DNA of 64,000 nucleotides, taken from contig CBDESZ010000030.1 in assembly GCA_965242725.1 (NCBI GenBank), forward strand, positions 84,240-148,239. The letters run 5' to 3'. The position numbers and the translations under genes are program-made. The DNA is from Alkalispirochaeta sp. (GTDB lineage Bacteria; Spirochaetota; Spirochaetia; DSM-27196; Alkalispirochaetaceae). The notes below the pieces were generated by a model. It was not told where the DNA came from, did not search any database, and saw nothing but the letters and a program-made list of their open reading frames with translations. Positions within the stretch are counted from its first letter, which is position 1; every line of letters begins with the position of its first letter. Shown here in pieces: positions 27,335-54,991 of this stretch.

Positions 27335-27368
27335 TGAAAACGATACCACGACCCAAAATGGCTGTCAA
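27335..27368 (-). promoter_or_regulatory. Sigma70 promoter with an overlapping LacI-type operator
   Basis: Minus strand TTGACA-17-TATCGT; operator TGAAAACGATACCA at 27335-27348. Confidence 0.65.
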
Positions 27369-27394
27369 ATTTTTTCTCCCTATCTTTTTCGCGT

Positions 27395-34590: not shown

Positions 34591-35025
34591 TTACTCCACC
34601 ACCCCTTTCTTCAGGATGACGTTGGCGTAGAGCGCCGATTCGCCAGTTGCAAGAATGGCGAATGCCTTTTGGGAGCGCTCGTAAAATGCAAAGCGTTCAA
34701 CCATGTCAAACCCTTCCGCAATCCTGGCCGGCTGATGTCGCGTTACGATTTCCCGATAGCGGTCCCAGACGGTGGGCACCGTCTTGTCGCCGGGAACCAC
34801 TTCCATAAGGGCAACCGGCTTGGGTACAAACCTGTCGAGGGGGAAAAGGGGCAGAATCGCCTCAAGCAGATCGGCGACTCCATGTCCATCCGCACGGATC
34901 AATCGAGCGGCCATTGAAGCGGCGGGGAAATTGCCGTCTCCGATCACCAGTTCGTCGCCATGTCCCATTTCAGCAATCACCTTCAACAGCTCCGGGCTGA
35001 GCAGCGGAGAAATTCCTGTGAGCAT
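34591..35025 (-). CDS. fucU: RbsD/FucU family mutarotase (copy 1)
   Basis: EMGHGDELVIGDGNFP, ERFAFYER, YANVILKKGV. Confidence 0.9.
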   Translation of the reverse strand: MLTGISPLLSPELLKVIAEMGHGDELVIGDGNFPAASMAARLIRADGHGVADLLEAILPLFPLDRFVPKPVALMEVVPGDKTVPTVWDRYREIVTRHQPARIAEGFDMVERFAFYERSQKAFAILATGESALYANVILKKGVVE

Positions 35026-35046
35026 CGTTACCTCCTGTCGGATCGT

Positions 35047-35895: not shown

Positions 35896-35905
35896 ATGTC
35901 GCTCC

Positions 35906-37085: not shown

Positions 37086-37192
37086 GTTAATACGTAGTAT
37101 GGTAATTTCGAATATCCCCGTTGTCAAAGGGTACCTGGGCTCCGATGACGGGGACGGTGAGCATCCTGTACAATCCACTGCGGAGGATACAC

Positions 37193-38404
37193 GTGAGTAC
37201 AACAAGGTCGATCCTGTCGGGTACGGGATGTGCGCTCATTGACTATCTGTTTACCGATATCAATTTTGATTCACCGCCCTTCCAACGCTACATATCCCGT
37301 ACGCCCGGCGACGGCGGTCTGCGTCCGGGACATCTCGTGTTCGTGGAAGGGATTGAACGATTTTCCGGATTGTCCTATCAGGACGTTCTGGAGGAGGTCA
37401 CCGGAGGGAGCCGGCCTTTTTCAAGCAATCTCGGAGGTCCCTCAATCGTCTCCCTTGTACACGCTGCACAGCTGCTTGCGGGGCGGGACGTGGAGGTTCC
37501 TTTTTTCGGCGTCCGGGGCAGCGATACAGCGGGAGAGCGGATCGCCGAGATCATCGCAGGGACGCCCCTTTGTACCGACCATTATGACGTATGGGACGGG
37601 ACAACCCCCTTTACCCACGTCCTTTCCGATCCGACCTGGGACGACGGTGCGGGGGAACGATCGTTCATCAACGGCACCGGTGTCGCCGGTCGATACGCAA
37701 CTGCCCATATCCCCTCCTCATTTTATGATCACGAAATAGTCGCATTCGGCGGAACGGCTCTCGTCCCTGCGCTGCACGATGAACTGCATGTTCCTGTACG
37801 CCGCGCCCGGAAGGGCGGATCGCTGACCGTGGTCAATACGGTCTATGATTTCCATAACGAGTCCCGCGCCCCCGACAGGCCGTGGCCGCTTGGAGAAAGC
37901 AACGAGACCTACAGACATACGGACCTTCTCGTCGTCGATGCCGAGGAGGCCCGTCGACTGAGCGGCGTTGAATCTATTGAGAAAAGCGCACAACGCTTTG
38001 TAGAAGCCGGTGTTTCGGCGGTCATCATCACCAACGGTCCTGACGATCTTTTCGTGATATCAACGGGAGGGCGGTTTCATCGTCTCGAAGGACAGCGTTT
38101 TCCGACGAGCCGTCGTGTACGGGAAGAGCTGAAGAGCACACCTGCGGCCCGGCGGGACACCACGGGGTGCGGTGACAACTTTGTCGGCGGCGTCCTGTAC
38201 TCACTGGCTGAGCAGATCTCCGCCGGCGAGAAGCGGCTGGATATGCGCCACGCAACGGCCTGGGGCGTTGCGTCAGGCGGCTTCGCCTGCTTCTCCGTCG
38301 GGGGTACGACGATAGAATCATATCCAGGCGAAAAGCGGGAACAGATTATCCCCTACGTGCGGGCGTATCAACGTCAGCTGGGAGGCGTTGTTGACGACGC
38401 ATAA
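37193..38404 (+). CDS. PfkB family carbohydrate kinase
   Basis: NLGGPS, DGAGERSF, ITNG, DTTGCGDNFVGG; GGAGG RBS before GTG 37193. Confidence 0.85.
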   Translation: MSTTRSILSGTGCALIDYLFTDINFDSPPFQRYISRTPGDGGLRPGHLVFVEGIERFSGLSYQDVLEEVTGGSRPFSSNLGGPSIVSLVHAAQLLAGRDVEVPFFGVRGSDTAGERIAEIIAGTPLCTDHYDVWDGTTPFTHVLSDPTWDDGAGERSFINGTGVAGRYATAHIPSSFYDHEIVAFGGTALVPALHDELHVPVRRARKGGSLTVVNTVYDFHNESRAPDRPWPLGESNETYRHTDLLVVDAEEARRLSGVESIEKSAQRFVEAGVSAVIITNGPDDLFVISTGGRFHRLEGQRFPTSRRVREELKSTPAARRDTTGCGDNFVGGVLYSLAEQISAGEKRLDMRHATAWGVASGGFACFSVGGTTIESYPGEKREQIIPYVRAYQRQLGGVVDDA

Positions 38405-39623
38405 CGACACCGACGGACAACTGATCGTCATATTCGGCGCAGGCAATATCGGACGTTCCTTTATCGGTCAGATCTTCGGCCGCAGCGGATACCGGGTCGT
38501 ATTCGTCGACGTCGATACCGCTCTTGTGAAACGGCTGAATCGGGACCACCGGTATCACGTCGTTCACCGACATCCCGACGGGAGTGAAGAGCGACTCATC
38601 ATCCCCAACGTTTCAGCTGTCGATGGAAATGATAAGAACGCCGTGGGGCAATATCTAGGGTCTGCACGGACGGTGGCAACCGCCGTCGGTGCCGCCGTTC
38701 TGCCCCGGCTGCTGCCGCTCCTCACCGATGAAGCTTCCCGCCGTATACGGAACGGCGAAGAGCCCTTTGACATTATCCTTGCGGAAAACATGCACGGCGC
38801 GGGCGACCTCGTACGCGCATCCTTTGAAAGGGCGGCAATCGACGCGGGCGTTCCCGCCCGGTACGACAGGACAAGACCAACCGGAAATCTCCCCGGCGTC
38901 GTTGAGTGCAGCGTCGGTAAAATGGTCCCCATCGTCTCACGTGAACGTCGAACCGCGGAGCCGACGACGGTGTGGGCGGAAGGATTCAACACGCTCCTGG
39001 TCGATGCAGACGGATGGAGCGGCGCGGTTCCGGACGTTCCTGAGCTCCGTCCCGTACGACCGATCGCCGCATGGGTAGACCGGAAGCTCTATATTCACAA
39101 TCTCGGCCATGTGGCGTGTGCCTATCTCGGCCATCAGGCAATGTCGGAAGGCACCTATATATGGGAGGTTGTTTCCCGCAACGATATCGCCCCGGCGGTA
39201 CGACGCGTTATGTCCGCCGCCGCAACGGGGCTGAGGAGAGAATACCCCGCCGTATTTACCTCTGAGGATCTGGATGATCACATTGAGGATCTCCTCAGGC
39301 GCTTTGCCAACAGAGGTCTGGGAGACACGATATTCAGAGTGGGTCGGGATATACACCGGAAGCTCGGCCCCCGGGAGCGGGTGGTCGGCGCGCTGAGAAT
39401 GCTGCAAAAACAGAATCTCGATACGACGCCCGTCGAAGCGGTCTATCGCGCCGCCCTTGGATTCCACGCCGTCGACGGCTCGGGACGCCCTTTTCCCGCC
39501 GACGAGGAGTTTCATCGCACCCTTGCGGAAACGGAGGACCCCGCGGGCGTCCTGGCCGGGATATCCGGTTTTGATGTCACCGGCGATCGGGCGTTACTTG
39601 AACGCCTGCTTCAACCGATGTGA
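38388..39623 (+). CDS. mtlD: Mannitol-1-phosphate 5-dehydrogenase-like polyol-phosphate dehydrogenase
   Basis: FGAGNIGRSFIG, TAVG, LAEN, RKLYIHNLGH, RFANRGLGDTIFRVGRD..RKLG..ER. Confidence 0.8.
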   Translation: MLTTHNDTDGQLIVIFGAGNIGRSFIGQIFGRSGYRVVFVDVDTALVKRLNRDHRYHVVHRHPDGSEERLIIPNVSAVDGNDKNAVGQYLGSARTVATAVGAAVLPRLLPLLTDEASRRIRNGEEPFDIILAENMHGAGDLVRASFERAAIDAGVPARYDRTRPTGNLPGVVECSVGKMVPIVSRERRTAEPTTVWAEGFNTLLVDADGWSGAVPDVPELRPVRPIAAWVDRKLYIHNLGHVACAYLGHQAMSEGTYIWEVVSRNDIAPAVRRVMSAAATGLRREYPAVFTSEDLDDHIEDLLRRFANRGLGDTIFRVGRDIHRKLGPRERVVGALRMLQKQNLDTTPVEAVYRAALGFHAVDGSGRPFPADEEFHRTLAETEDPAGVLAGISGFDVTGDRALLERLLQPM

Positions 39624-39631
39624 TCTGCCGG

Positions 39632-41149
39632 CTATCCTCTTTGAAGGGCTTCGAGAAATGCCCGCCGGTATTCATCGATACCGGGAATGGAAACTGCATC
39701 CACCGGAACGGTATTCAGCTCGACGGTATCCGCCAGATCCGCCAGCGGTCGACCCGTCAGCACCGACTGTCCGCAGAGGGCGGCACCAAAGGCGGTCGCC
39801 TCTTCCACCGAGGTCAAAAAGATCGGATTATCCGGCAGGAGTGCGGAGAGCACGGCGAGATAGGTCTCATTGTTTCTGAATCCGCCCTCTATGAAAATTT
39901 CGGTTCCCTTCCGCATACCCACCCGCTGCAGCGCAATCACCGACTGTATGGCGACGGAAATATCAACAAGCGCGAAAGCACGGGCATACTCGTTGAATGC
40001 TGCGGGAAAGGCGTCTTCCCTGTGTATTGACTCGAGACTGATCGTCATGAAGGTCCCGCCCTCCCCTTTCTCGACGACCCGCGCCTCCGAATCGGGAAAC
40101 TGTCCGGATCCGCGTACCACCGACGGGAGAATAAACGCATCCCGCCGGGCCGCGATGTCCGTCAGGAGGCCGGTGTTGAGGGGCGGTTCATCGGAACGGT
40201 CATGACGCCGGGAGAGAATTTTCCGGTACGTCTCATACTCCAGCCCCCCCATGAGGATCGACGTTTTGACCGGCCTGCCGTCATACCCGAGGTTGAAGAA
40301 AACCATTTTCCCGATTTCATCCGGTCGAAACGCAACGGTGTCGGTTGGGCGCATGGCAACACACCACGTTCCCGTCGAATTGAGGACGAAATCCCGGTCC
40401 CTGGTAATGAGATAGGGAATGAGACTGGAGTTGGAGTCGTGAATCCCGGCGGTTACGACCGTTTGCGGGTCCAGACCGGTATGTTCCGCCACATCGGGAG
40501 TAATTGTTCCAATGGCCTCCGTCGGCAGCACCGGCCGCACGGGCAGGGCGTGACGCAGACCGAGTCGATCGACCACGTGGGACCAGTCGTTTTTCTCGTG
40601 ATCCCACAGGTAGGTATGACATCCTGTATAGGTGATATCTGCGGTGGCCTTCCCGGTGAGGAGATAGGCGAAGTATTGGGGATAGAGGAGGAGGTGTCTG
40701 GTGGCATCAAAGCGGTCGGGGTAGCGTTCTTTCAGAAAAAAGAGAAGCTTTCCCACGTTTATCAACGGCTGGACTTCCGCGGTCGCCGTCTTCTGCTGCA
40801 ACTCCTCGGGTGAACCCATGGCGGCGAAGAAGCGTTTCCGGACCTCCTCATCCACTTCCTGGGTGTAGTCAAGAGGCGGCACCGACGGTTTCCCGTCGGC
40901 ACCGACACATACCGCCGCCGCCCCGTGGGTGGCGATGGATATGACCTTGATGTCCCAGGCAGCGGCGAGATCGGTAAGCTGATCCAGAAACCACCGCTCG
41001 ATACCCGCGACGTCCTCGACGCGAAACCCGTCAACAGTGACTGGTTCAATCTTGGTACGCCGGGCGTCCCGCATGCGCATGTCTTGATCAAAGATCGCAA
41101 CTTTCTTGTTCGTCTTTCCGATATCCAGGACCGCGACTACCTGTTCCAT
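39632..41149 (-). CDS. FGGY kinase, fuculokinase/rhamnulokinase-like
   Basis: LDIGKTNKK, ATHGA, GCHTYLW, GIHDSNSS, STGTW, EGGF; directly downstream of fucI. Confidence 0.8.
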   Translation of the reverse strand: MEQVVAVLDIGKTNKKVAIFDQDMRMRDARRTKIEPVTVDGFRVEDVAGIERWFLDQLTDLAAAWDIKVISIATHGAAAVCVGADGKPSVPPLDYTQEVDEEVRKRFFAAMGSPEELQQKTATAEVQPLINVGKLLFFLKERYPDRFDATRHLLLYPQYFAYLLTGKATADITYTGCHTYLWDHEKNDWSHVVDRLGLRHALPVRPVLPTEAIGTITPDVAEHTGLDPQTVVTAGIHDSNSSLIPYLITRDRDFVLNSTGTWCVAMRPTDTVAFRPDEIGKMVFFNLGYDGRPVKTSILMGGLEYETYRKILSRRHDRSDEPPLNTGLLTDIAARRDAFILPSVVRGSGQFPDSEARVVEKGEGGTFMTISLESIHREDAFPAAFNEYARAFALVDISVAIQSVIALQRVGMRKGTEIFIEGGFRNNETYLAVLSALLPDNPIFLTSVEEATAFGAALCGQSVLTGRPLADLADTVELNTVPVDAVSIPGIDEYRRAFLEALQRG

Positions 41150-41172
41150 ATCGCTCCTTGCCTCTCGGTCCC

Positions 41173-42981
41173 TTACCGATACAACGGGCCGTAGGTATCG
41201 CACGCCCGGTAGTCAGCGCCTTCCAGATCGGATCCAAAGAGTTTCCACGCCTGGGGGCGGAACACCTGTTCCTTCGGAACGTTGTGCATATTGACCGGTA
41301 TACGCAGCATCGACGCCAGTGTAATGAGGTCCGCGCCGATATGGCCGAAACTGATTGCGCCGTGGTTTGCGCCCCATGCACCCATGACCGAGTACACGTC
41401 GGTGAAATAGCCCTCGCCGGTTACACGCGGGACGAACCAGGTCGTCGGCCACGTCGGGTTGGTCCGGAGGTCCAGTTTTTCGTGAACCTCTTCAGGAAGA
41501 TCCACAGTCCAGCCTTCCGCGATTTGCAGCACCGGCCCCTGCCCCTTCACGAGATTAACCCTGCACATCGTCACAGGCATGTCGCCGCGGGTAAGGAAGT
41601 CCGTTGAAAAACCGCCGCCCCTGAAGTAGCCGAGATCGGCGGGACAGAACTCGGTGTTGTTCACACACGCCGCCGCTTCTTCTCCGGTTATCTCCCAGAA
41701 CGGTTTGATCGCCGGTTTTCCCTCTTTTTCCTGCCGTCCCGTCCCGTCGAGACAGGTGGAACCACTGTTAATGAGGTGAATGATGCCGTCTTTGGCCGTT
41801 CCGGATAGGGTATGGCCGGTAACCCGCTTCACCGCTTCGGGGCTCCAGAATGTCCGTACATCGCTGAATATCTGCGCCGTCCCCGTCAGGAGATGGCCGA
41901 AGAGCATGACCGCGCCGTTGAGGCTGTCGTTTTCGGTGGCGAAGATATAGGGGGCCCGTAATCCGTCCCAGTCGAAGGAGGAATTGAGCATCGTCTCCAT
42001 GAAATCGCCGTTGGGGAGGTAGTCCGTCCACTGTCGCTGGCCCTGGAACCCGGCGGCTATGGCGTTAAAACCGAGGGCTTCCTCGCCAAACCCGCGTTTT
42101 TCGAGCACAGGGTTGCCCTTCATGAGATCCTTGCCGATGAGCGTCATTTTCACCGACGTCTCCCATTCCCGGTCTTTCTCTTCCCGCGAGTGCTGCACCG
42201 ACGGATCGTTGAAGTCACGACCTTCCTTCAGGTTTTCCTTCACCCATTTGATCGCCCGCTTGTACTCTTCAGGATCGTAAATATCCTGTTCGATCCGGCG
42301 GGAAACTTCACTCATGTCGACGTACTCGTTCCGCATGCCCAGGTATCTCTGGAAGAAATCGGGATCGACGATGGACCCGCCGATACCCATGGAGACCGAT
42401 CCAATGGAGAGATATGATTTCCCGCGCATCACGATGACCGCCGTCGCCGCCCTGGCAAAGCGCAGTATCTTTTCCTGTACATCCGCCGGTATTGAATCGT
42501 CGTCAAGATCCTGGACGTCGTGTCCGTAAATGCCGAATGCGGGCAGCCCTTTCTGGGCGTGCGCCGCGAGTACGGCGGCGAGATAGACCGCGCCGGGACG
42601 CTCCGTTCCGTTGAATCCCCATACCGCCTTGACGGTCATGGGATCCATATCCATCGTCTCCGAGCCGTAACACCAGCAGGGCGTCACGGTCAGGGTCGCG
42701 CCGACGCCCTCCCGTTCAAATTTAGCCTGACACGCCGCGGATTCCGCGACGCGCCCGATCGTCGTATCGGCGATGACCACTTCCACCGGCGTTCCGTCGG
42801 GATAGCGGAGATTCTTTGTGATGAGATCCGCCGCGGCCCGCGCCATTTTCATCGTCTTGTCTTCCAGCGACTCCCGGACGCCGCCGAGGCGACCATCTAT
42901 AGTCGGACGGATACCGATTTTCGGCTTTTCGCCGGCAAATCGCCACTCATCGGTTTTTTTGGGTTGTGGTTTCCAGTTCAT
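41173..42981 (-). CDS. fucI: L-fucose isomerase
   Basis: [58 protein letters not shown]. Confidence 0.97.
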
Positions 42982-43002
42982 CTGCTCCTCCTGTAGGTCT
43001 GA

Positions 43003-43437
43003 TTATTCCTCAATGACTACGCCCTTTTTCAAAATGATATTGGCATATAACGCTTTTTCACTCGTCTGAATCGTCGCCACCGCCCGACGCGCCCGCTCAT
43101 AGAAGGAAAAGCGTTCCATATGTTCAAAATGCGCGTGATCGGGTTCATGCTTTTCAACGATCTTCCGATACGTCTCCCAGATCGGCGTCTCCACCGGATC
43201 ACCCGGCGAAACTTCCATGAGCACCACCGGACTCTCCACATATCCGTCCAGAGGAAAGAACCGGAGAATCGCATCGAGAAGGGGCGGAATCCCCACCCCG
43301 TCGGTGCGTATGACCCGGTCTGCACGCCCGCCGACAAAATAGTTCCCGTCGGCAATGACGAGCTCGTCGCCGTGGCCCATTTCCATCAGGGTGGAGAGAA
43401 TTGCCGGAGACAATACGGAAGGGATTTTTTTCAACAT
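43003..43437 (-). CDS. fucU: RbsD/FucU family mutarotase (copy 2)
   Basis: EMGHGDELVIADGNY, ERFSFYER, YANIILKKGV; AGGAG RBS before ATG 43437. Confidence 0.9.
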   Translation of the reverse strand: MLKKIPSVLSPAILSTLMEMGHGDELVIADGNYFVGGRADRVIRTDGVGIPPLLDAILRFFPLDGYVESPVVLMEVSPGDPVETPIWETYRKIVEKHEPDHAHFEHMERFSFYERARRAVATIQTSEKALYANIILKKGVVIEE

Positions 43438-43469
43438 AGGCGCTCCTGTTGTTCCGGGACCATTGTACC

Positions 43470-44741
43470 CTAAGATGAAATCTTCGGCGCGTGGGTGAGG
43501 ACGTATTTTTCCGCCTCGCCGTTCCACAATCCGTTGTGCCGTTCCACGATCTTCGCAAGATCCGCCATGAACTGATCATTTCGACCGAGTTTTTTCATGT
43601 CTGCTATGGCAGTGAGGGGCATCTCCACGTGGGTGTATATAAGCTTCTTTCCGCCGGGGATCTTCGGCAGATTGAGGGTGGTCTCCACGACGGCGTTGAG
43701 CCCGCCGATGTGAGTAATCATGATCGAGGGATTGATCCGTCCCTCTTCCATCAACTCGAGAGAAATACGCATATCCTCGGTGTTTCCGCCGGAGGTACCC
43801 ACGAAGTGGTGTGCCTCATAGTGGAGGTCGTACAGATTCAGTCGCGCGGAAAAGGCGGTATCCGTCGGACCTGCAAAGAAATTCAGACATCCGTCACGCC
43901 TGAGAATGCGGTCTCCCTGTTCCACCACCATTGAAACGGGCGCCATCACGAGAACGTCGTCAAATCCGAGACCGTCGTCGGTAAGACTCTTGAGGTGTTC
44001 TTCGGCATTATCCACCGTGGCGGTATTCACGAACTGCAGGGAAATTCCGTCCGCCGCAGCCGCCTCGACGGGAAAAAGCTCTTCCGCCCGGGAAAGACGG
44101 TCGTCGTCGATGTCGGTGACAACAAGCTGCTTCGGCCGCCGGTCGCCGTGAAGTGCGAGATCAACGGCGCCAAGTCCCATCGGACCGGCACCGGCAAGTA
44201 TCGCCATGCGTCCGCCTTCACGTATTCCCATTTGATGATCATACGTGCCGGTGGGAACGTGATAGGAGGCACGAAAGGCGCCGACAATACACGACATGGG
44301 TTCGCTGAGACTCCCGAAGTACGACGCCTCACCGGCGTAGGGCAGGAGGCAGTCCATTTCCATTACTTCATTGGGAATAATGACGTGGGTGGCGTCTCCC
44401 CCGATGAACTGGTAGGAGTACCCCGGTGCGTCGAGACTGCCCTTGTAGTTCAGGGCGGGCTGAATGACGTAGCGCTCGCCCTCGCGGTACGTATCCTTCC
44501 ACGCCTTCCCGACCTGGAGGAGGCGAATTGAGAACTCATGTCCGATCATCACCGGGTGGTCCTTGATATTACCGGGCACCCGTTTATGGTCGGAACCCTG
44601 CTCCGCCGCCTTGTAGCTGCTCATGCAGATGCTGTCCGAGACGACTTCTCCGAGAATCTCATTGTCTCCCGGTTCCGGGAGCTCAAAGGTCTCCATCCGT
44701 AAATCTTTTTTTCCGTACATTCGTACTGCCGTCGTACGCAT
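43470..44741 (-). CDS. L-sorbose-1-phosphate reductase (SorE)-like Zn dehydrogenase
   Basis: DSICMSSYKA, HKRVP, IGHEF, IQPAL, PGYSY, EPMSC, GAGPMG, GTSGG, ITHIGGL, PGGKKLIY. Confidence 0.85.
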   Translation of the reverse strand: MRTTAVRMYGKKDLRMETFELPEPGDNEILGEVVSDSICMSSYKAAEQGSDHKRVPGNIKDHPVMIGHEFSIRLLQVGKAWKDTYREGERYVIQPALNYKGSLDAPGYSYQFIGGDATHVIIPNEVMEMDCLLPYAGEASYFGSLSEPMSCIVGAFRASYHVPTGTYDHQMGIREGGRMAILAGAGPMGLGAVDLALHGDRRPKQLVVTDIDDDRLSRAEELFPVEAAAADGISLQFVNTATVDNAEEHLKSLTDDGLGFDDVLVMAPVSMVVEQGDRILRRDGCLNFFAGPTDTAFSARLNLYDLHYEAHHFVGTSGGNTEDMRISLELMEEGRINPSIMITHIGGLNAVVETTLNLPKIPGGKKLIYTHVEMPLTAIADMKKLGRNDQFMADLAKIVERHNGLWNGEAEKYVLTHAPKISS

Positions 44742-44819
44742 ACTGTCTCCTTCTTTTCGTTTGTGCCGCAACGGCGACATATTCACTGCCGTGGCTTTCC
44801 GCCCGATGTACCGGTACCG

Positions 44820-45572
44820 CTATACCACGGTGACCTGCACCTCGCACGTCTCAAGCTGTTCTCTCATTTCCGCAGAAATGCCGTCGTCCGTTATCAGGAC
44901 ATCCACCTCGGAAAGAGACATTACCTGAATAAAACCCCTCTTTCCGAATTTGGTCGAATCTGCCACCAGCACCGTCCGGTCGCAGTGGCGCGCCATGGTG
45001 CGGGATACCTCGGCGGCATCGACGAAGTTGGTCGTCAGACCGTGCTCACATGAAATACCGTCGGAACCGATGAAGGCCGTGTTGACGTGAAACTGGGACA
45101 GTTCCGCAATGGTCACCGGCCCGACCATTGACTCCGTCGCAGGTCGGAATGTACCCCCGACAAAGGCGAGGGAAATCATTGGATTTGCCCGGACAAAGGG
45201 CAGTATCAACGTGGAGTCGGTAACCAGTTTGAGGTCCTTTTTCCCGAGGAGATACCGGGCGATCATCGCTGTGGTGGTACCAGACTCGATCATCACCGAG
45301 TCGCCGTCGGATACATACTCCGCAGCGGCTTTTGCTATTCTTCGCTTCTCTTCGATTCTGGTCTGCTGCCGGGCGATGATGTCGGGATGAAACGCCGGAA
45401 GGGCTCCGCCGCGGATACGGACGAGGTATCCCTTTTCCGCCAGGGTATCCATGTCGCTTCGCGTCGTGACGACCGAAACGCCCAGACGCTCGCTCAACTC
45501 CGCCACAGTCAGCAGCGGTTCTTCCGCGAGAAGACGGACAATGGTTTTTTCTCTATCACGCAGGTTATCCAA
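44820..45572 (-). CDS. DeoR/GlpR family regulator (copy 1)
   Basis: LSERLGVSVVTTRSD HTH, RIRGGA, IESGTT, ADSTKFG. Confidence 0.92.
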   Translation of the reverse strand: MDNLRDREKTIVRLLAEEPLLTVAELSERLGVSVVTTRSDMDTLAEKGYLVRIRGGALPAFHPDIIARQQTRIEEKRRIAKAAAEYVSDGDSVMIESGTTTAMIARYLLGKKDLKLVTDSTLILPFVRANPMISLAFVGGTFRPATESMVGPVTIAELSQFHVNTAFIGSDGISCEHGLTTNFVDAAEVSRTMARHCDRTVLVADSTKFGKRGFIQVMSLSEVDVLITDDGISAEMREQLETCEVQVTVV

Positions 45573-45659
45573 TGGTTTCCAATTACCTTATTTTCTGTTT
45601 CATTATACTTGTTTTTACATACTTCGCAAGTGTATGATGCATATATACCCGGAGGTTCC

Positions 45660-46958
45660 ATGGACTCAAAAACCCCTCAATACGTAACGCAACTGGAATC
45701 GGCCGATCGAGACAGCCGGATTAACGCGCTGCGCCGGCTGGCGGATTCGACCGATCTCACCACGACCCCGTTCGGGGAAGAAGTAAACAACCACGTCCAT
45801 ACCAGATACTCCTTCAGTCCCTACTATCCCGCGTCGGTGGCGTACCACGCCCGTCGGGCGGGGCTCCAGGTCGTCGGTTCTGTTGACCACGAGTCGATCG
45901 GCGCCGCCCGGGAGATGAAGGAAGCCGCGGCTATTGTGGGTATGGGTGCTACGGTGGGGTGTGAAGTGCGTGCGAGCTTTGCCGATACGGAATTTGCACG
46001 GCGTCGCCTCAATAATCCCGATACCGTCGGGAACGCCTATATGGTGATCCACGGCGTCCCCGGGCCGTCACTTGAAGCGCTGGCTGAGTGGCTGAAGCCG
46101 TTAAACGTCGCCAGGGAGGAGCGGAACCGCCGGCAGGTCGCCAATTTGAACGGTATCATTCAGACCGAGCTGGGAAGCCTCGACTACGACCGCGACGTCC
46201 GTTCCCTCTCACTCGCACACGAGGGGGGAAGCGTCACGGAACGGCACATACTGTACGCCCTGGCGCTGCGCGTTCTGGATGCGGTGGTCGACGGAACGGG
46301 TATTTCCACATTTCTCACGGAACGACTGGAGATGGAGGTCGCCCCGGCGATCGCCTCCCGCATTGATGACGAGACAAATCCCCACCGGGTCTACGACCTC
46401 CTCGGGGCGTTTAAGGCGACGTTCGTTCCCCAGTTTTTCATTCAACCGGGAACGGTGGAGTGTCCGCCCGTGGCGGAGGTAAACGCCTTTGCCCGCGCGC
46501 TTGGCGCCATTCCCGCCTACGCCTACCTCGGCGATGTGGAAGAATCCCCGACGGGTGACAAGAAGGCACAGCAGTTTGAGGACTCCTTCCTGGACGAACT
46601 TTTCACGGAGTTGCCCCGTCTCGGGTATCAGGCGGTAACGTATATGCCGCCCCGGAACACCATGGTCCAGCTGCGACGCGTGCAGGAACTGGCAGCGGGC
46701 CATAATCTCATGGAAATAAGCGGTGTCGACATCAATTCCAGCAGACAGTCATTTCACTGCCCCGAGGTCCTTGAGCCGGAGTTCCGCCACCTCATTGAAA
46801 GCACCTGGGCGCTGGTGGGACATGAAGAAGCGGCGCAACGGGAGATCGACAGGGGATTGTTCGGTACCTCATCGGAGGCGCAGGCGGAATCGATCTCCCG
46901 ACGGGTCGGGACATACGCGGCGATCGGGCGGGCAACTACGGAACGCCGCCGCAGATGA
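45660..46958 (+). CDS. PHP-domain protein of unknown function
   Basis: NNHVHTRYS, VDHES, GCE, ERH, YAYLGD; GGAGG RBS before ATG 45660. Confidence 0.8.
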   Translation: MDSKTPQYVTQLESADRDSRINALRRLADSTDLTTTPFGEEVNNHVHTRYSFSPYYPASVAYHARRAGLQVVGSVDHESIGAAREMKEAAAIVGMGATVGCEVRASFADTEFARRRLNNPDTVGNAYMVIHGVPGPSLEALAEWLKPLNVAREERNRRQVANLNGIIQTELGSLDYDRDVRSLSLAHEGGSVTERHILYALALRVLDAVVDGTGISTFLTERLEMEVAPAIASRIDDETNPHRVYDLLGAFKATFVPQFFIQPGTVECPPVAEVNAFARALGAIPAYAYLGDVEESPTGDKKAQQFEDSFLDELFTELPRLGYQAVTYMPPRNTMVQLRRVQELAAGHNLMEISGVDINSSRQSFHCPEVLEPEFRHLIESTWALVGHEEAAQREIDRGLFGTSSEAQAESISRRVGTYAAIGRATTERRRR

Positions 46959-47016
46959 ACGCCGCCGTCGCTGACAGCCGCTGCCTCCGACCATCGCCCC
47001 GCCGTCTATGTACAGA

Positions 47017-48219
47017 TCAGGATAGCATCACCTGGCCGCCGGTCACGGGAAGGGCCTGGCCCGTCTCATATTCCTGTCCCACGAGATACGCAATCGCACG
47101 CACCACGTCGCGACCTGTACATCCTCGCCCCATGGGAACCTTCGACTCGTAAAAACGGCGAACGTCGGCAACCGTTTTCGCCCCGGGCACCTTTCCGGCG
47201 TTCAGATATTGAACAAACAGTCCCCGTTCCGGATCGCTCCACAATGGGCCGTCGAGGAAATTACCGGGACAGACGGCGTTTACTTTGGTTCCCTGTTCCA
47301 CCAGTTCAAGGGCAAAACTCTGGACGAGCCCGATGCCGCCGAATTTGCTCCCCGCATATGCGGCGTTCCTGTTGCTGCCCACCAGACCGCTTTTGGAGTT
47401 GATTTCGACGATGTCGGTAAGGTATTGGCGTCGCCCGTTTCGGGCCGGTTCGTTGGTCGGTTCTACGACAGAACCGCCCTCGCCGTAACCGGCAACGTAG
47501 TGCCGGACCGCCTGGTTCTGCAGCTCCATCACCGGCGCGGCGTGTTTGGTCATCAGAAAGAAGCCGATATAGTTGACGTCGGTTACAAAACGGAAATCCT
47601 TGACTTCGAGAGTCTTGACGCTCCCCGCTTTCAGGACGCCGGCGTTGCTCACAAGGAGATCGATACCACCGTAATTTTCAGTCACCTCCCGGATGAGCCG
47701 GGCTACACTCTCTTCCGAGGTAACGTCAACGACAAATCCGCCATGAGGCACGCCGAGTTTTTCAGCCGCCTCGCGAACTCCCCCTTCGTTGATGTCCGCG
47801 AGAACGACCACCGCACCAAGGGCGGCGAGTCCCCGGGCGATTTCCCATCCGAAACCCTGTGCCGCACCGGTCACGACGGAGACGCGTCCCCGAAGGCTTT
47901 CAGCAATCTCCCGGGGAGAGAGTACCTGGTTCTCATCGTCGGTATCCGGGTGCCCACCGCCGTCGACGACGCTCCACGCCGTTCCGTCCGGAAGTCCTAC
48001 CGTCAGCGGCGCCACGCCCATTTGGTCCACATAGGAGTGCCACTGGGCGGTAATGCTCTCCACCGTTGCCGGCTCGGTGACGGTGAAATCCGGTGTGGAA
48101 ACCTTTCCATATCTATACAACGCGCCGGGACCGACGACGGTATCCCGTTCGGTCATGCAGGCGCTCAGGCCGCGCAGGACCGGTCCTATTTGCCACGCGT
48201 GCAGTTCGGCCATCGTCAC
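47017..48219 (-). CDS. Sorbitol-6-phosphate dehydrogenase (SrlD)-like SDR with an N-terminal extension
   Basis: [51 protein letters not shown]. Confidence 0.85.
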
Positions 48220-50690
48220 ACTCCTCCGGCGGCGCGGCGCAGTACTTCGGCACCGGACTGTTTTGTCGTGACCGAGTGCCCCGGCAGCGGAACGATCTGC
48301 TCATGGATCGCGTCTATGATCCACTCCGCCTGGGGAAAGAATGCGTCCTCCAGCTCCTTCGCGGGAGTGATCCAGTTTCTGCTTCCCACCACGACGGGCG
48401 GAGCGTCAAGTTCGTCAAAGGCAACCCGGGCGACCGAACCGGCTATGGTGTGGAGGAAACTGCCCCGTTCCACGGCGTCACTTGCAAGAACAAGTCGCCC
48501 CGTCTTGCGCACCGACGCCACGATAGGTTCGATATCGAGGGGATTGATGAATCGCGCGTCGATGACCTCCGCGCTCACTCCGTATTTCTCCTGAAGGGTG
48601 TCCGCCGCCTCTATTGCACGGTAGAGGGTCGCACCGATGGTGACGATGGTCACATCCGTCCCTTCCCGTTTGACCTCCGGCTGTCCCTCGGGTATCTCGT
48701 AGTAGCCTTCGGGCACCCCTTCCGTATGGAAGAGCTCGCCCACATCGTAAATGCGCTGACTCTCAAAGAAGACGACGGGATCACTGCCGTGGAGGGCAAG
48801 GTTGAGCATTCCTTTGGCGTCGTAGGGCGTCGCGGGGAAATACACTTTCAACCCCGGTATGTGGGCTACCATGCTCGTCCAGTCCTGACTGTGCTGGGCG
48901 CCGTATTTGCTGCCCACGGAAACACGCAGGACCAGGGGCATTTTGAGGACGCCGGCGCTCATGGATTGCCACTTCGCCATCTGGTTGAATATCTCGTCGC
49001 CGGCCCGGCCCATGAAGTCGTTGTACATGAGCTCCACCACGGCGCGTCCCCCGGCGAGGGCGTATCCGACGCCGCTGCCGGCGATCGCTCCCTCGGAGAT
49101 GGAGGTATTGAAGAGGCGGTGGTAGGGAAGAAGCTCCGTGAGTCCCCGATAGACGGCGAAGGCGCCGCCCCAGTCGCGATTCTCTTCCCCGTAGGCGACC
49201 ATCGTGGGATCTATGGCAAAACGGTGCGCCATCGCCTCGAAGAGGGCGTCCCTGAGGGCAAAGACCTTCAGTTTGGAAACGGGTTTGCCCTCGTCGTCCA
49301 GGCCGAACCTGACCTTGCGCTTCAGCTGCTGGACCCGTTCATTTTCTTCCAGGGGCTGCAGGAGTTCCGGTTCCCGGTCGTCCCACTTCTCCGTCGGGGT
49401 ATTGCTGAACATGTACGATTCGATCTCTTCCGGCGCCATGTAGGGACTCACGGCAGGGTCGGTGGCGAGACGTGTCGTTTGAATGATCTTCTCCTTGGCG
49501 CGACGGTCGTACCCTTCCAGTGTCGCCTCGTCGGCAATGCCGTTCTCAAGCAGATAGGCGCGGTACCCCGCAATGGCGTCGTTTTCCTGCCACGCCTCGA
49601 GCTCTTCCTTGGTTCTGTAGCTGGACGCGTCCGACGGGGAGTGGCCGCTGTAGCGGTAGGTCACCGTATCAAGGAGTACCGGCCCCCTCCCCTCAAGAAG
49701 GATCTTCTTCTTCCGGGCGATCGCGTCGGCGACGGCAAGGGGATTGTACCCATCCACCCGTTCTGCATGCATATTGTCGGGATTGACGCCGGCTCCCATA
49801 CGCGCGAGCACCCGAAAGCCCATCGTCTCTCCGACGGGCTGCCCGCCCATTCCGTAGAAATTGTTGAGGAAATTGAAGAGAACCGGAGGCGCACCACCCA
49901 CATGGTCCGGCCAGAGGGAGCGATACTGCTCCATGGAAGCGAGCATCATCGCCTCCCACACGGGACCGCAGCCGGCGGAGGCGTCGCCGATATTTGCAAG
50001 GACGATGCCGTCTTTCCTGTTTACCCGTTTATAGAGGGCAGCTCCCATGGCGATATCGGCGCTTCCCCCGACGATTGCGTTATTCGGCATCGAGCCGAAG
50101 GGCGCAAAGAAGGCGTGCATGGAACCGCCGAGTCCGCGGTTGAAGCCGGTCTCCCGGGCAAAGATTTCCGCAAGCGTTCCGTACAGGACGAAATCCTCCG
50201 CGGCGGAGACGATGTCGCCGTCCTCGGCCCCACCTTCCCGACGGGCACGCTCGACAACCCGCAACGCCGCACCGTCGAAATAGGATTCCATGGCGGAGCG
50301 CAGCTCCTCCTCGGAGAGGCGCGTCACCGCGGCAAAGGACTTGGCAAGAATCTCTCCGTGGCTGCGGTGACTTCCGAATACGAGGTCCGCAACGTCGAGG
50401 TTCATGCTGAGTCCCACCACGGCGCTTTCCTGACCGATGGAGAGGTGCGCCGGTCCACCGTGGTTGTATTCGATCCCTTCGTAGCTGCCGCTCATTTTGA
50501 TGCTGTTGAGCATCGTTTCAAACTCCCGGATCAGCTGCATATCGTAATAGGCGCGGACGAGACGCTCTTTTCCGTAGGTCTTCAGTTCCTTTTTTGCGTC
50601 ACCTTTGTACTGGTTTACCGGGATGGGATCGATGTTCAATGTCTGCGCCGCACGGGCGTTTTTCGGATCGACAAATAGTGTTTTCGGCAT
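48216..50690 (-). CDS. Fused E1 alpha/beta ThDP-dependent dehydrogenase (acetoin/2-oxoacid dehydrogenase family)
   Basis: [21 protein letters not shown]...NN ThDP motif, YRYSGHS; beta domain [24 protein letters not shown]. Confidence 0.9.
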
Positions 50691-50710
50691 AGATTTCCTC
50701 CGTCCGGCGA

Positions 50711-51937
50711 CTATCGCGCCAGGGTTAGTTCAAAGTTTGCGATACCTTCGGCGACGGCCTGCAGAACGCGTGCCGCCGGCGCGCCGTCCACGGCGCGATG
50801 GTCGATCGTCAGGGAGAGCCCGATCCGGGGGATGACTTCTCCGTCGTCGTCAAAGCCCTTTACGATCGATCCGACACCGAGAATGCCCACCTGCGGCGTA
50901 TTGAGCACCGGCGTAAAATGTTCGACACCCAATCCGCCGAGGTTGGTGACGGTAAAAGTCGCCGCGGCGAGATCATCCGCCGTGGCGGTTCCCGCAACCG
51001 CCCGCTCCGCCAGGGCCCGCGTCTCTTCGGCAAGAACGCTCAGGCTTTTTCCGTTTGCACCCCTGATCGTCGGCACGAGGAGGCCCCGCGGTGTATCTAC
51101 CGCGAAACCGAGATCGACCTGCTCAAACCGGCGAATTACCGAATCGAGGAAGTGGGCATTCATCTCGGGGTAGTCGGAAATTACCCGGGTCACGACAAAG
51201 TTCACCATGTCGTTAATTGAAATCCGCAATCCCTCCGCCGCCTTTACTTTGGCGCGGTAGGCAAGGAGGGCGCGGGCATCGGCCTTGCGATGGAGGGTAA
51301 GCTGGGCGGAGTTTTGAAGGCTCGCGAGCATCCGCGTGGCGATCGTCTTGCGGACGCCCGTCACCGGAACATCGGTAAAAGCCGCCCCCCGGTCTACCTT
51401 CGCCGTGGATACGCCTTCCTTTTCAGCCGCACGGACATCCCGTTCAATGACGCGACCGCCGGGACCGCTCCCCTTGAGCGTCGACGGATCGATGCCGGCT
51501 GCTTCCGCACGCTTTCTTGCCCGGGGGCTGACACGAACCTTTCCGGTGGAAAAGGAACGCACTACCTGCGCCTCCGCCGCCCCGCCTTCCGCGCCTGCGA
51601 CCCGGGCCTCCTGCGACGCCGAAGGCGTATCTTCTTCCTCTGTTCGATCATCTTTGCCGCCACCGTCACCGGGAGCGCCGTCGGGGGGAGTCTCACCTTT
51701 CCGTCCCACCGCGACGAGAGGTTCCTTGACGGGGACCTCGTCACCTTCCCGGGCGTACAACTTGAGGACGGTGCCCGCGGCAGTGGATTCCACCTCCATC
51801 GTCGCCTTGTCCGTCTCGATATCGCAGAGGATGTCCCCCACCGCGACATTGTCCCCTTCGGAGACACGCCAGGAAATGACGATACAGCTTTCCACGCTAT
51901 TGCCGGCTTGCGGCATGACTACTATCTCAGCCATCAT
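50711..51937 (-). CDS. Dihydrolipoamide acyltransferase (E2)
   Basis: Lipoyl [39 protein letters not shown]. Confidence 0.93.
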
Positions 51938-52710
51938 TTCTCCTTTTCTGGTCGATCAACGATTCGTACATCCCTTCCCCGGGCCAAAAGTTCCTCTCTC
52001 ATATCCGCGGGGATGCCGGAATCGGTAATGAGCACATCGATATCTGCAATTTCAAGGACCCGGACAAAACCGACCTTACCGCACTTTGAACTGTCCGCAA
52101 CGGCGATCGTACGGTCCGCCTGAGCGGCCATTTTGCGTACGATCTCGGCGCCTTCCACCAGATGGGTAGTGAATCCGGCGTCAAGGGTGAAGCCGTCGGT
52201 TCCGACAAAAGCCTGCCTCACGTGGAACCTTGAGAGGTCTTCAATCGCCAGCGGACCGACGAGGCTCTCCGTTGTCGGGCGATATTCACCGCCGATCATT
52301 GTCATACGTATTCCCGGATTTCCCCGTCCATACGCAAGGGCGAGGGCGTTATTGGTCACCACCATCACATCACGCCGCCCCAGGAGGTAGCGAACGATGA
52401 GAGCGGTAGTCGTTCCCGCTTCAATCATCACCGTGTCGCCGTCCTCGACCATTTCCGCCGCCGCCTTGGCAATACTTCGTTTGACCGCATCATTTGTCTG
52501 CCGGCGTTCAAGGATTCGGGGATGAAAGGTTGATACGGCACCGCCATGGGTACGGATGAGATAGCCCTTCTCTTCCAGCGCATTGAGATAGGAACGGATA
52601 CTGACTTGAGATACTCCTAATTCATCGGCGAGCCGGGCTACCCCCGTCGACGGATCATCGGCGAGGTAGGAGAGGATCTCGCGCTCACGATCGGTTATAT
52701 TCGGCGTCAT
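51934..52710 (-). CDS. DeoR/GlpR family regulator (copy 2)
   Basis: LADELGVSQVSIRS HTH, RTHGGA, IEAGTT, ADSSKCG; overlaps the E2 start. Confidence 0.92.
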   Translation of the reverse strand: MTPNITDREREILSYLADDPSTGVARLADELGVSQVSIRSYLNALEEKGYLIRTHGGAVSTFHPRILERRQTNDAVKRSIAKAAAEMVEDGDTVMIEAGTTTALIVRYLLGRRDVMVVTNNALALAYGRGNPGIRMTMIGGEYRPTTESLVGPLAIEDLSRFHVRQAFVGTDGFTLDAGFTTHLVEGAEIVRKMAAQADRTIAVADSSKCGKVGFVRVLEIADIDVLITDSGIPADMREELLARGRDVRIVDRPEKEK

Positions 52711-52766
52711 GACTAAACCGAATCATAACTCAACCGTAAGTATTTCGCAAGTAATTCAAAGATCAA

Positions 52767-53720
52767 TTACAAGACCGGGTGAAGGGCAAAGTAGGTCACA
52801 AAGACGACGAGAGAGACGACGGTATACACGGAGAGCACGTTATTGGCGTAGATTCGTTCTTCCTCCTGGTCGGCTCTCATGAAGAGGGGAACGATATAAG
52901 GCGGAGGCAGGATGAGAAACGTTATGACCGCAGCCTCAAAGGCGGGATCAAGACGGAGGATGCGACGGATTATCACCTGGACCACCACGATCGTCACCGG
53001 TATGAGCACCACCGCCCTGGTCACAACGATGCCGACGGCATCCCGGATCCCCCGACGGGAGAGACGCATGCCGTAGCCGATGACGATGAGAATCGCGGGG
53101 ATCAGAAGCCCCCCCAGAAGATCGAAGGTTTCTATAACGGCACTTCCCACGGGAGACGCGCTGATTGCCGGCCCCGCTCCGGCCACGTTCAATACGGTGG
53201 CGCTCACAATTGCGATAATCAGGGGCGACGAAACAAAGCCGCGCACCGTTCCGGCGAGGCTGCTGATTCCGTCCCGCTTCGCCGTCAGAATTGTCGCCAG
53301 CACAAACCAGATGAAGAGCTCATGACTCAAATCAACGATGGCAATATACCCCACATTTGAAAGACCGTAGGCGGTGCCGAAGAGAGTGACCCCCAGCATG
53401 CCGAATTCAAAACCCGTGGTGAGGTGGGGAAAATAGTCGTGCCTGATGGAGAATATACGTTTGAGGAGGTAGCCGTAGCCGAGAAGGCCCAGACAGATCA
53501 CGGCGATCGTCAAAAAGAGACCAAGAAAGGAGCGTTTCATTTCCATATCCAGGAATGCAACGAAAAGAACTGCAGGCAGTGCGATGTTCACCACCAGCCC
53601 TTTCAACTCGTCTACCGTTTCGGGACTGAGGATCTTCCTGGCGCGGATGCCGTTACCAAGGGCGATAAGAAAAATAATCGGCAGTACTTTTGCGACGACG
53701 CCGGCGATGTGAGGGCTGAT
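52767..53720 (-). CDS. AEC (auxin efflux carrier) family transporter; start uncertain
   Basis: About 10 TM helices; VVNIALPAVLF, FEFGMLG, SPLIIAI, LIVIGY, ILPPPY. Confidence 0.8.
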   Translation of the reverse strand: MSPHIAGVVAKVLPIIFLIALGNGIRARKILSPETVDELKGLVVNIALPAVLFVAFLDMEMKRSFLGLFLTIAVICLGLLGYGYLLKRIFSIRHDYFPHLTTGFEFGMLGVTLFGTAYGLSNVGYIAIVDLSHELFIWFVLATILTAKRDGISSLAGTVRGFVSSPLIIAIVSATVLNVAGAGPAISASPVGSAVIETFDLLGGLLIPAILIVIGYGMRLSRRGIRDAVGIVVTRAVVLIPVTIVVVQVIIRRILRLDPAFEAAVITFLILPPPYIVPLFMRADQEEERIYANNVLSVYTVVSLVVFVTYFALHPVL

Positions 53721-53770
53721 ACGCGCTCCTTTACTATCGGGTATCACCCATTTTACCGTATCGGCTGAAC

Positions 53771-53801
53771 AAAAAAAAGGCCCGCGGCATAACCGCGGGC
53801 C
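53771..53801 (-). terminator. Rho-independent terminator after the ABC SBP gene
   Basis: GGCCCGCGG-CATAA-CCGCGGGCC 9-bp stem with A8 (U8 on the minus strand). Confidence 0.9.
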
Positions 53802-53824
53802 CTTCCACAATCTCTGACTATGAA

Positions 53825-54937: not shown

Positions 54938-54991
54938 AAATACCTCCTGTATTTTTTACCTGAAACTCTCTGTTTCAGGGTTTTCTCCATA

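Follow-up and report, generated by a model that had tools for sequence, protein, structure and literature searches.

Association of L-fucose genes with a lipoyl-dependent dehydrogenase complex in Alkalispirochaeta and a possible route from the methyl end of 6-deoxyhexoses to acetyl-CoA

Among the major sugars of mucus, pectin and algal polysaccharides are fucose and rhamnose, 6-deoxyhexoses whose textbook anaerobic breakdown loses half of each as 1,2-propanediol. In a 64,000-nucleotide stretch of DNA from Alkalispirochaeta sp. (NCBI GenBank assembly GCA_965242725.1, contig CBDESZ010000030.1, positions 84,240 to 148,239; hereafter, the window), genes for L-fucose isomerase (FucI) and L-fucose mutarotase (FucU) lie next to an operon for a thiamine diphosphate (ThDP)- and lipoyl-dependent dehydrogenase complex. 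How might such a complex take part in the breakdown of fucose? The original prediction, made from the letters of the window, proposed that two dehydrogenases move the carbonyl group of L-fuculose-1-phosphate towards the methyl end and that the complex then cleaves the resulting methyl ketol to acetyl-CoA and a tetrose phosphate, without an aldolase. We found that the fucose genes and those of the ThDP/lipoyl complex are not neighbours by chance. We tentatively read these genes as the fucose version of a conserved 6-deoxyhexose module in which the methyl end would be converted to acetyl-CoA by the predicted route, a reading that we consider plausible rather than probable.

The genes of the fucose region are arranged as follows (window coordinates, with the strand in brackets).

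37121-38404 (plus): PfkB kinase (Pfam)
38388-39623 (plus): Mannitol_dh-family (mtlD-like) dehydrogenase (Pfam)
39632-41203 (minus): FGGY kinase (Pfam FGGY_N, FGGY_C_2)
41173-42981 (minus): L-fucose isomerase FucI (NCBIfam NF008220, TIGR01089)
43003-43527 (minus): mutarotase FucU, with a probable start near 43437 (Pfam RbsD_FucU)
43470-44741 (minus): long zinc-dependent medium-chain dehydrogenase (MDR), SorE-like (Pfam ADH_zinc_N)
44820-45572 (minus): regulator DeoR1, first gene of the MDR-fucU-fucI-kinase operon (Pfam DeoRC, HTH_DeoR)
about 45660-46958 (plus): PHP-like gene, 432 amino acids (aa) (orthologues match PF02811)
47017-48219 (minus): SrlD-like short-chain dehydrogenase (SDR) (NCBIfam sorbitol-6-phosphate dehydrogenase model, below its cut-off)
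48216-50690 (minus): fused E1 alpha/beta ThDP enzyme, 824 aa (Pfam E1_dh, Transket_pyr, Transketolase_C)
50711-51937 (minus): lipoyl E2 acyltransferase (Pfam Biotin_lipoyl, E3_binding, 2-oxoacid_dh)
51934-52710 (minus): regulator DeoR2, first gene of the E2-E1-SDR operon (Pfam DeoRC, HTH_DeoR)
52767-53810 (minus): AEC/Mem_trans membrane protein between the transporter and DeoR2 (PF03547, 30.2 bits)
53825-54937 (minus): ATP-binding cassette (ABC) transporter substrate-binding protein (Pfam Peripla_BP_4)
54992-56278 (minus): ABC transporter permease (Pfam BPD_transp_2)

Scans of open reading frames (ORFs) and domains located every gene named in the original prediction at its predicted place. The DeoR1 gene is divergent from the PHP gene, and the true start of the MDR, judged from an alignment of its orthologues (A1), is residue 16 of the ORF. 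In the window, E2 and E1 are not separated by an E3 gene, unlike in most relatives, in which a gap of 1.4 kb between these genes is occupied by E3.

The arrangement was compared with 12 related loci, up to 20 kb each, from the genus, family and order. DeoR-E2-(E3)-E1 was kept in all 12, and orthologues of DeoR2 (50-62% identity) preceded E2 in every case. Eight of these loci carried fucI with fucU directly adjoining, eight carried the SDR and eight carried the PHP gene, which adjoined the SDR; the MDR was adjacent in two and the kinase in one. Further, E1 orthologues of at least 62% identity were present in 35 of the 41 genomes from these three ranks. In one complete genome from another family, the genes form a single-strand run, deoR-E2-E1-PHP-SDR-FGGY-MDR, with rhaA and a RhaE-like gene 5-8 kb off and fucI distant. 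The cluster of a third family also holds LplA, a radical-SAM gene (probably lipoyl synthase LipA, judging from its size and position), a RhaE-like gene, an ASRT-family gene and a TIM-barrel isomerase that replaces fucI. Among 151 sampled genomes of the phylum, the E1 orthologue was present in seven and the MDR in six, all six within the seven; the positive genomes are related to one another, so that this co-occurrence does not amount to a statistical test. Synteny, co-occurrence of MDR and E1, the DeoR regulators and family-level homology agree with the prediction that fucI, the kinase, the SorE-like MDR, the SrlD-like SDR, the PHP gene and E1/E2 belong together. The prediction had also included the pfkB and mtlD-like genes; these are present in the window, but homologues of either gene were absent from all 12 related loci, and the pair is probably a separate unit and not part of the conserved module. 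The idea that it supplies the second dehydrogenase step was rejected because it is not syntenic in relatives.

The module extends well beyond the spirochaetes. When contigs of one genome per species were scanned with the MDR alignment, at least 582 related stretches were detected, and the best 80 of these (58-66% identity) were analysed. These 80 belonged to Clostridia, Bacteroidales, Lentisphaeria/Victivallales, Spirochaetota and Fibrobacterota, and many came from metagenome-assembled genomes of gut or rumen. Neighbours within 10 kb were counted in the 49 loci of at least 18 kb: E1 was found in 25 of the 49, E2 in 22, E3 in 19, the SDR in 33, the PHP gene in 24, the FGGY kinase in 12, rhaA in 5 and fucI in 2. 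A GH95 fucosidase gene flanks the module in one locus (L059). The module was joined to rhaA as often as to fucI and is not specific for fucose. In all five genomes in which an MDR-SDR-PHP triad stood away from E1, an E1 orthologue (52-60% identity) was encoded elsewhere. Five further genomes carried the MDR without another module gene nearby, two of them in a phosphotransferase system (PTS) operon, and one of these five had an E1 orthologue. In Bacteroidales, HAD phosphatases are added to the module.

FucI scored 1085.6 bits with NF008220 (cut-off 775) and 1046.1 bits with TIGR01089 (cut-off 850), both above the cut-offs for L-fucose isomerase. FucU scored 113.5 bits with the NCBIfam L-fucose mutarotase model (cut-off 141). 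The FGGY kinase is about 21% identical to kinases of the RhaB/FucK type and belongs to an unnamed FGGY subfamily: all NCBIfam kinase models gave 58 bits or less, including TIGR02628 (41.5 bits; cut-off 470.9) and the rhamnulokinase model (55.9 bits; cut-off 527.95), so that it is not of the FucK or RhaB type. Its homologues (43-49% identity) adjoin rhaA or the MDR in other loci, and we propose that it may act as an L-fuculose (and L-rhamnulose) kinase. Homologues of the window's ABC transporter (38% and 47% identity) directly adjoin fucI in the canonical loci of low-GC spirochaetes (L130-L132), suggesting that the genes at 53825-56278 probably encode the fucose uptake system.

Contig C25 carries a rhamnose unit (221891-229033; L045) in which rhaA and a RhaE-like gene accompany a sugar ABC transporter but a kinase is absent. 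A tblastn search of the genome found neither a RhaB-type kinase nor another gene of the window's FGGY subfamily; therefore, one FGGY kinase may serve both deoxy sugars.

The MDR matched sorbitol dehydrogenases and a ketose reductase best in the PDB (41-47 bits), and its relatives there at the sequence level (28-47 bits overall) also include butanediol and xylitol dehydrogenases. No SorE model was matched by the MDR, for which polyol and ketose dehydrogenases were the nearest PDB entries. Homologues with about 62% identity end operons of a fructose/mannitol-type PTS EIICB, a PRD regulator, EIIA and 1-phosphofructokinase (L093 and L094, Clostridium-type); the latter enzyme scored 341 bits, above the equivalog cut-off of 292, and both genomes are without an E1 orthologue. 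This context in PTS/1-phosphofructokinase operons points to a phosphorylated ketose or hexitol as the substrate of the MDR, and we propose that it is a candidate ketose-1-phosphate/hexitol-phosphate oxidoreductase.

The best PDB match of the SDR was sorbitol-6-phosphate dehydrogenase (5o3z, 146 bits; the next best was about 100). With the NCBIfam sorbitol-6-phosphate dehydrogenase (SrlD) model it scored 215.2 bits, below the equivalog cut-off of 307, and with TIGR02632 (RhaEW) 128.6 bits, far below the cut-off of 567.75; an Aldolase_II domain was absent from the protein. The window SDR bears an N-terminal extension of about 105 residues. It is 55% identical to the SDR part of an aldolase-SDR fusion encoded in another locus (L058), and in hhalign the whole window SDR, extension included, aligned to positions 223-660 of the fusion. 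By these alignments, the window SDR is the counterpart of the fusion protein of other phyla minus its aldolase core. The fusions themselves scored 231-299 bits with the RhaEW equivalog and 227-235 bits with the SrlD model, and make up an unnamed subfamily.

E1 and E2 domains are both present in the window, and a homologue of E3, 35% identical, is encoded on contig C18. All family matches of E1 and E2 were to models of the pyruvate dehydrogenase (PDH) type, and all fell below the cut-offs. E2 was below every NCBIfam equivalog cut-off, with the PDH E2 model as its best match (254.7 bits; cut-off 445); the fused E1 scored 248.8 bits with the E1 beta model (cut-off 321) and 180.4 bits with the E1 alpha model (cut-off 393.85). 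The best PDB matches of E1 were E1 subunits of PDH and branched-chain 2-oxoacid dehydrogenase (166-203 bits). A search for relatives with a split E1 alpha returned only fragments of orthologues without informative names. E3, LplA and LipA accompany the module in other genomes, which argues that the complex is lipoyl-dependent and oxidative. In the present genome, homologues of these three are located on contigs C18 and C17, and two further E1/E2 sets are located on contigs C18 and C1.

Paralogous fused E1 genes (34-40% identity) occur in another spirochaete family, several per genome, in two further conserved settings. In one setting, E1 adjoins a Mannitol_dh-family gene 38-40% identical to that of the window (L038, L040 and L043); in the other, a transaldolase/FSA-like gene, E1 and the lipoyl carrier GcvH occur together (L037, L041 and L044). 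No E2 was found near E1 in these six loci. The fused-E1 family therefore accompanies sugar-phosphate enzymes in these settings as well. Transaldolase-like genes were absent from the 80 MDR loci.

The PHP protein of the window was unmatched in the Pfam scan, and its orthologues matched PF02811. Residues H45, H47, D76, E102, H196, D292 and H388, which include an HxH motif, are invariant in the alignment (A2) and are presumably metal ligands. The AlphaFold model (mean predicted local distance difference test score 91.6) resembled TrpH/YciV-type proteins in Foldseek, namely 3e0f, 2yb1 (pAp phosphatase) and 9etk, with E values of 1.6e-10 to 4.5e-9 and target TM-scores of 0.70-0.73; RNase AM is among the matches. 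The protein thus combines a PHP fold with HxH and further candidate metal ligands, and it is probably a phosphoesterase. An Atlas search with the PHP protein gave no label beyond 'PHP domain'.

Does the breakdown of fucose in this organism proceed without an aldolase? Searches with aldolase references in tblastn were replaced by custom hidden Markov models (HMMs) because tblastn missed a Pfam-verified FucA (L130). All eight matches of the genome to PF00596 (class II aldolase) lie on contigs other than that of the window, and the FucA-type and RhaE-type HMMs found none among window ORFs of at least 70 aa, confirming that the window holds no fuculose-1-phosphate aldolase. Further, the HMMs detected no FucA linked to fucI in the 12 related loci. 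The sole FucA-like gene of the genome (178.8 bits; cut-off 264) adjoins mtnA, a pairing characteristic of the methylthioribose/5-deoxyribose shunt. The rest of the aldolase family in this genome comprises OtnC, AraD fragments, a double-domain protein and two RhaE-like proteins; a stand-alone RhaE-like gene of 398 aa directly follows rhaA on contig C25 and is 37% identical to the N-terminal part of the aldolase-SDR fusion. Iron-containing alcohol dehydrogenases (the FucO family) gave four matches in the genome, all on other contigs and none in the window. Neither fucA nor fucO adjoins fucI here or in the other E1-positive genomes.

A propanediol microcompartment was considered and dropped, as the only microcompartment locus of the genome (contig C16, 76157-82720) held no diol dehydratase in the stretch scanned. 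This locus, under a DeoR regulator, encodes BMC-H, a tandem BMC protein, three EutN/CcmL proteins, an aldehyde dehydrogenase and a DeoC/LacD aldolase, with an RHS-repeat protein nearby, and its gene content suggests a microcompartment for sugar phosphates and not one for propanediol or ethanolamine.

Taken in order, the steps of the route would be as follows. L-fucose would enter through the ABC transporter; FucU would interconvert its anomers, FucI would isomerise it to L-fuculose, and the FGGY kinase would add a phosphate at C1. The MDR would reduce the C2 keto group, giving a 6-deoxyhexitol-1-phosphate, and the SDR would oxidise the carbon adjoining the methyl group, giving a 1-deoxy-ketohexose-6-phosphate, a methyl ketol. 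The fused E1, acting like acetoin dehydrogenase, and the lipoyl E2 would then cleave this ketol to acetyl-CoA, NADH and a tetrose-4-phosphate, with E3 supplied by the complex on contig C18. Rhamnose would enter this module via rhaA. From the observed gene content, synteny, co-occurrence and family-level homology we infer every substrate, the order of the steps and the products. The predicted scheme is the most economical one that uses the MDR, SDR, kinase, isomerases and oxidative lipoyl complex, and homology at the family level fits a carbonyl shift of the SorE/SrlD type followed by cleavage of the acetoin dehydrogenase type.

According to our own stereochemical reasoning, the plain product would be D-threose-4-phosphate unless C4 of the 1-deoxy ketose is inverted. 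Fuculose and rhamnulose differ at the carbon that becomes the aldehyde and would therefore yield one and the same tetrose. The RhaE-like protein might be an epimerase (with D-erythrose-4-phosphate as the product), an adaptor for rhamnulose-1-phosphate or a true aldolase; it is speculation that an AraD-like activity of the aldolase-family domain would give D-erythrose-4-phosphate. The stronger proposal, that no aldol cleavage occurs, that the RhaE-like domain is an AraD-style 4-epimerase yielding D-erythrose-4-phosphate, and that all six carbons enter central metabolism without propanediol, is possible but appears doubtful to us.

Several known systems are close to parts of this scheme. In the L-sorbose pathway, SorE is an L-sorbose-1-phosphate reductase (a zinc-dependent MDR) and SorD/SrlD is a D-glucitol-6-phosphate dehydrogenase (an SDR). 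As in that pathway, an MDR stands here beside an SrlD-like SDR and a step that forms a ketose-1-phosphate, and the carbonyl group would be moved from end to end. In contrast to it, a 6-deoxy substrate would become a 1-deoxy ketose, which is unusable by glycolysis; further, the MDR is about 420 aa long and distant from solved polyol dehydrogenases (47 bits), and the SDR is below the SrlD cut-off. Acetoin dehydrogenase (AcoA/AcoB/AcoC/AcoL) consists, like the module, of a ThDP E1, a lipoyl E2 and E3, cleaves a methyl ketol to acetyl-CoA and an aldehyde, and often has an MDR dehydrogenase alongside. It differs from the module in that E1 alpha and beta are fused here, the regulators are of the DeoR type and not AcoR/sigma-54, E3 is off the locus and the proposed substrate is a sugar phosphate. 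The canonical fucose genes (fucPIKUR/fucAO) share with the window orthologous FucI and FucU, a kinase after fucI and a homologous ABC transporter nearby, but the window has no fucA or fucO at the locus and a kinase of another FGGY subfamily; the canonical set is retained in E1-negative low-GC spirochaetes. RhaEW (YuxG), an L-rhamnulose-1-phosphate aldolase/L-lactaldehyde dehydrogenase, shares its two-domain architecture with the aldolase-SDR fusions of the module, and the window SDR corresponds to the C-terminal two thirds of such a fusion; the fusions are nevertheless under the RhaEW cut-off, and the window protein has no aldolase core. The RhaEW organisms cited by Rodionova et al. (2013; PMC3870299) are without MDR, PHP or E1-E3 partners.

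Another close system is the locus of Caldicellulosiruptor bescii, Athe_0696-0706, which encodes RhaD1, a hypothetical protein, SrlD, SorE, LipB, LipA, E2, E3, E1, DeoR (RhaR2) and RhaA (Rodionov et al., 2021; PMC8579813); the counterpart of this rhamnose locus in C. saccharolyticus is Csac_0872-0876, and RhaD1 is a predicted aldolase. By gene names and order alone, the locus resembles the module of the window and of three other loci (L035, L056 and L125). It is joined to rhaA, unlike the module in the window, which is joined to fucI, and it is labelled 'Rhamnose, Fucose' in that paper. Rodionov et al. (2021), noting that Caldicellulosiruptor lacks lactaldehyde dehydrogenase and reductase, proposed that a 'novel three-subunit dehydrogenase' homologous to acetoin dehydrogenase (Athe_0702-4) handles lactaldehyde. 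The paper gives a function to E1-E3 only, places SrlD, SorE and the hypothetical gene in no regulon and reports no biochemistry on the locus. According to the supplement, the best characterised match of Athe_0704 (E1) is acetoin dehydrogenase at 41%; this figure for the likeness to acetoin dehydrogenase belongs to Athe_0704 and not to the E1 of the window. Among open-access papers and preprints, we found no description of fucose or rhamnose breakdown by a ThDP/lipoyl complex, nor any of fucitol or rhamnitol phosphates or 1-deoxy-ketohexose phosphates as catabolic intermediates.

Several observations weigh against conversion of the methyl end by the predicted route. Within the scheme itself, the PHP phosphoesterase has no role, the plain product D-threose-4-phosphate is not a central metabolite and the window SDR, which falls below the SrlD cut-off, is 42% identical to the sole module SDR that passes this model (L120, 362.9 bits). 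The remaining points concern aldol cleavage. An aldolase-family partner is nearly always present with the module. One protein cluster that holds the SDR occurs in 42 of the 80 loci, and most of its members are RhaE-like Aldolase_II fusions of 637-689 aa. RhaE-like genes, read from weak PF00596 matches on frames of 345-419 aa, were found in all five other E1-positive spirochaete genomes and in four of five Clostridia-type genomes without one near the module. In Bacteroidales, FucA-type genes (about 211 aa) lie inside the module, and in one spirochaete such a gene adjoins E1. To these are added the FucA-like gene beside mtnA and the four iron-containing alcohol dehydrogenase genes of the present genome. 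The module-like locus of C. bescii (by gene names and order) includes the predicted aldolase RhaD1 (PMC8579813), and a title among the references of PMC8269263 reports 1,2-propanediol from methylpentoses in Caldicellulosiruptor, which implies lactaldehyde. Finally, the sole characterised relative of the fusions, RhaEW of Chloroflexus, converts rhamnulose-1-phosphate to dihydroxyacetone phosphate (DHAP) and lactate, and yields neither DHAP nor lactate without NAD+ (PMC3870299).

The distribution of fucA beside fucI was examined as well. Twenty fucI loci were taken from the sample of the phylum, 17 from E1-lacking genomes and 3 from E1-positive genomes. A FucA-type gene stood beside fucI in 6 of the 17 and in none of the 3. 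Five of these six loci came from low-GC genomes and had one common synteny, which in L130 reads fucO-fucA-fucK-ABC-fucI-fucU by Pfam. However, fucI was without an adjacent FucA-type gene in the other 11 of the 17 as well, so that absence of fucA beside fucI is weak evidence for the predicted route. We regard this pattern as suggestive, not clean. In view of the RhaE-like fusions elsewhere, and of the RhaE-like gene beside rhaA and the FucA-like gene in this genome, the description of the pathway as aldolase-independent is not supported. What stands of the original interpretation is that the gene set belongs together and that its homology fits; the pfkB and mtlD-like genes are not conserved parts.

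If an aldolase acted before the module, as in the hypothesis of Rodionov et al. (2021) for Caldicellulosiruptor, the ketose-1-phosphate would be split to DHAP and L-lactaldehyde by the RhaE-like protein (rhamnulose-1-phosphate) or the unlinked FucA-like protein (fuculose-1-phosphate), and the module would handle the C3 half: the SDR (RhaW-like) and/or the MDR would oxidise or reduce lactaldehyde, and E1/E2/E3 would form acetyl-CoA from pyruvate or another C3 methyl-carbonyl compound. This is a real possibility, although we think it rather unlikely. RhaE-SDR fusions dominate outside the spirochaetes, FucA-type genes occur within the Bacteroidales modules, and rhaA adjoined a RhaE-like gene in this genome and in all four other rhaA-bearing genomes checked; in addition, RhaEW yields DHAP and lactate in vitro (PMC3870299), the final step has been assigned to the acetoin-dehydrogenase-like Athe_0702-4 (PMC8579813) and, from the reference title mentioned above, Caldicellulosiruptor forms 1,2-propanediol from methylpentoses. 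Such a pathway would, however, leave the strongly conserved MDR without a role, and the PTS/1-phosphofructokinase context of its homologues ill suits an enzyme of lactate or lactaldehyde. The SDR is nearer SrlD (215 bits) than the RhaW models (128 bits, TIGR02632), the fusions reached only 231-299 of the 567.75 bits required by the RhaEW equivalog, and the window SDR has specifically lost the aldolase core. Further, 12 of the 25 long loci holding E1 lacked any aldolase-family gene within 10 kb, the pathway would still need a lactate dehydrogenase and the PHP gene would be unexplained here too.

The same enzymes might instead convert the methyl end to acetyl-CoA by a different chemistry or order of steps, which we consider unlikely. 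For example, the first step could be direct oxidation of the 6-deoxyketose-1-phosphate at C5, after which E1 would cleave the 5-keto compound and the MDR would reduce the four-carbon product; alternatively, the kinase could act on the deoxyhexitol, or the PHP protein could strip the phosphate before cleavage. The order of steps is not fixed by the sequences, the kinase comes from an unnamed FGGY subfamily, a phosphoesterase is constant in the module (to which Bacteroidales add HAD phosphatases), and MDR-type butanediol dehydrogenases partner acetoin dehydrogenase in aco operons. Against this, the precedent of SorE and SrlD suits the MDR and SDR pair more simply, and loss of phosphate before cleavage would waste ATP. 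It is very improbable that the E1/E2 operon encodes a conventional dehydrogenase for pyruvate, acetoin or branched-chain oxoacids whose proximity to sugar genes in a carbohydrate island is fortuitous. The matches of E1 and E2 to PDH-type models and the density of unrelated sugar operons in the window would agree with chance adjacency, but the synteny with fucI, SDR and PHP is kept throughout an order and found again in other phyla, E1 orthologues are restricted to MDR genomes (6 of 7), the operon has its own DeoR regulator and the genome has two other E1/E2 sets.

The window as a whole is a carbohydrate island, dense in unrelated sugar operons. At 34591-37048 (minus) lie a second RbsD/FucU gene (34591-35025) and then shikimate-dehydrogenase-like and GFO/IDH/MocA oxidoreductase genes, which may form another sugar-oxidising unit; it is this FucU, and not the copy adjacent to fucI, that is orthologous (64-80% identity) to the mutarotase neighbouring fucI in relatives. 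More sets of sugar ABC transporter genes, and a TIM-barrel gene resembling xylose isomerase, are located at 22420-28273, and a MacB-type efflux set (OEP, HlyD-like, ABC ATPase, MacB/FtsX permease) followed by a hybrid-cluster (prismane) protein gene at 14240-21339. The 9-mer TTCGCAAGT is the sole word of at least 9 bases common to the deoR1/PHP intergenic region (45623) and the region upstream of deoR2 (52700-52780), and its copy near 45623 sits inside ACTTCGCAAGT, an imperfect inverted repeat. We dropped it as a shared operator because its rough chance expectation is about 0.07, too weak for such a call.

The module is very widespread, and cultured hosts exist: Caldicellulosiruptor, if its locus is homologous, and thermophilic Spirochaeta, which are among the sources of E1 homologues. 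Under the stronger proposal above, without aldol cleavage, the complex would be the first of the 2-oxoacid dehydrogenase type with a sugar phosphate as its substrate. If the methyl end of 6-deoxyhexoses is converted to acetyl-CoA by this module, the substrate range of lipoyl-dependent dehydrogenase complexes would widen. The carbon and ATP yields on fucose and rhamnose would then change, as would propanediol cross-feeding in gut and rumen communities and the annotation of hundreds of genomes.

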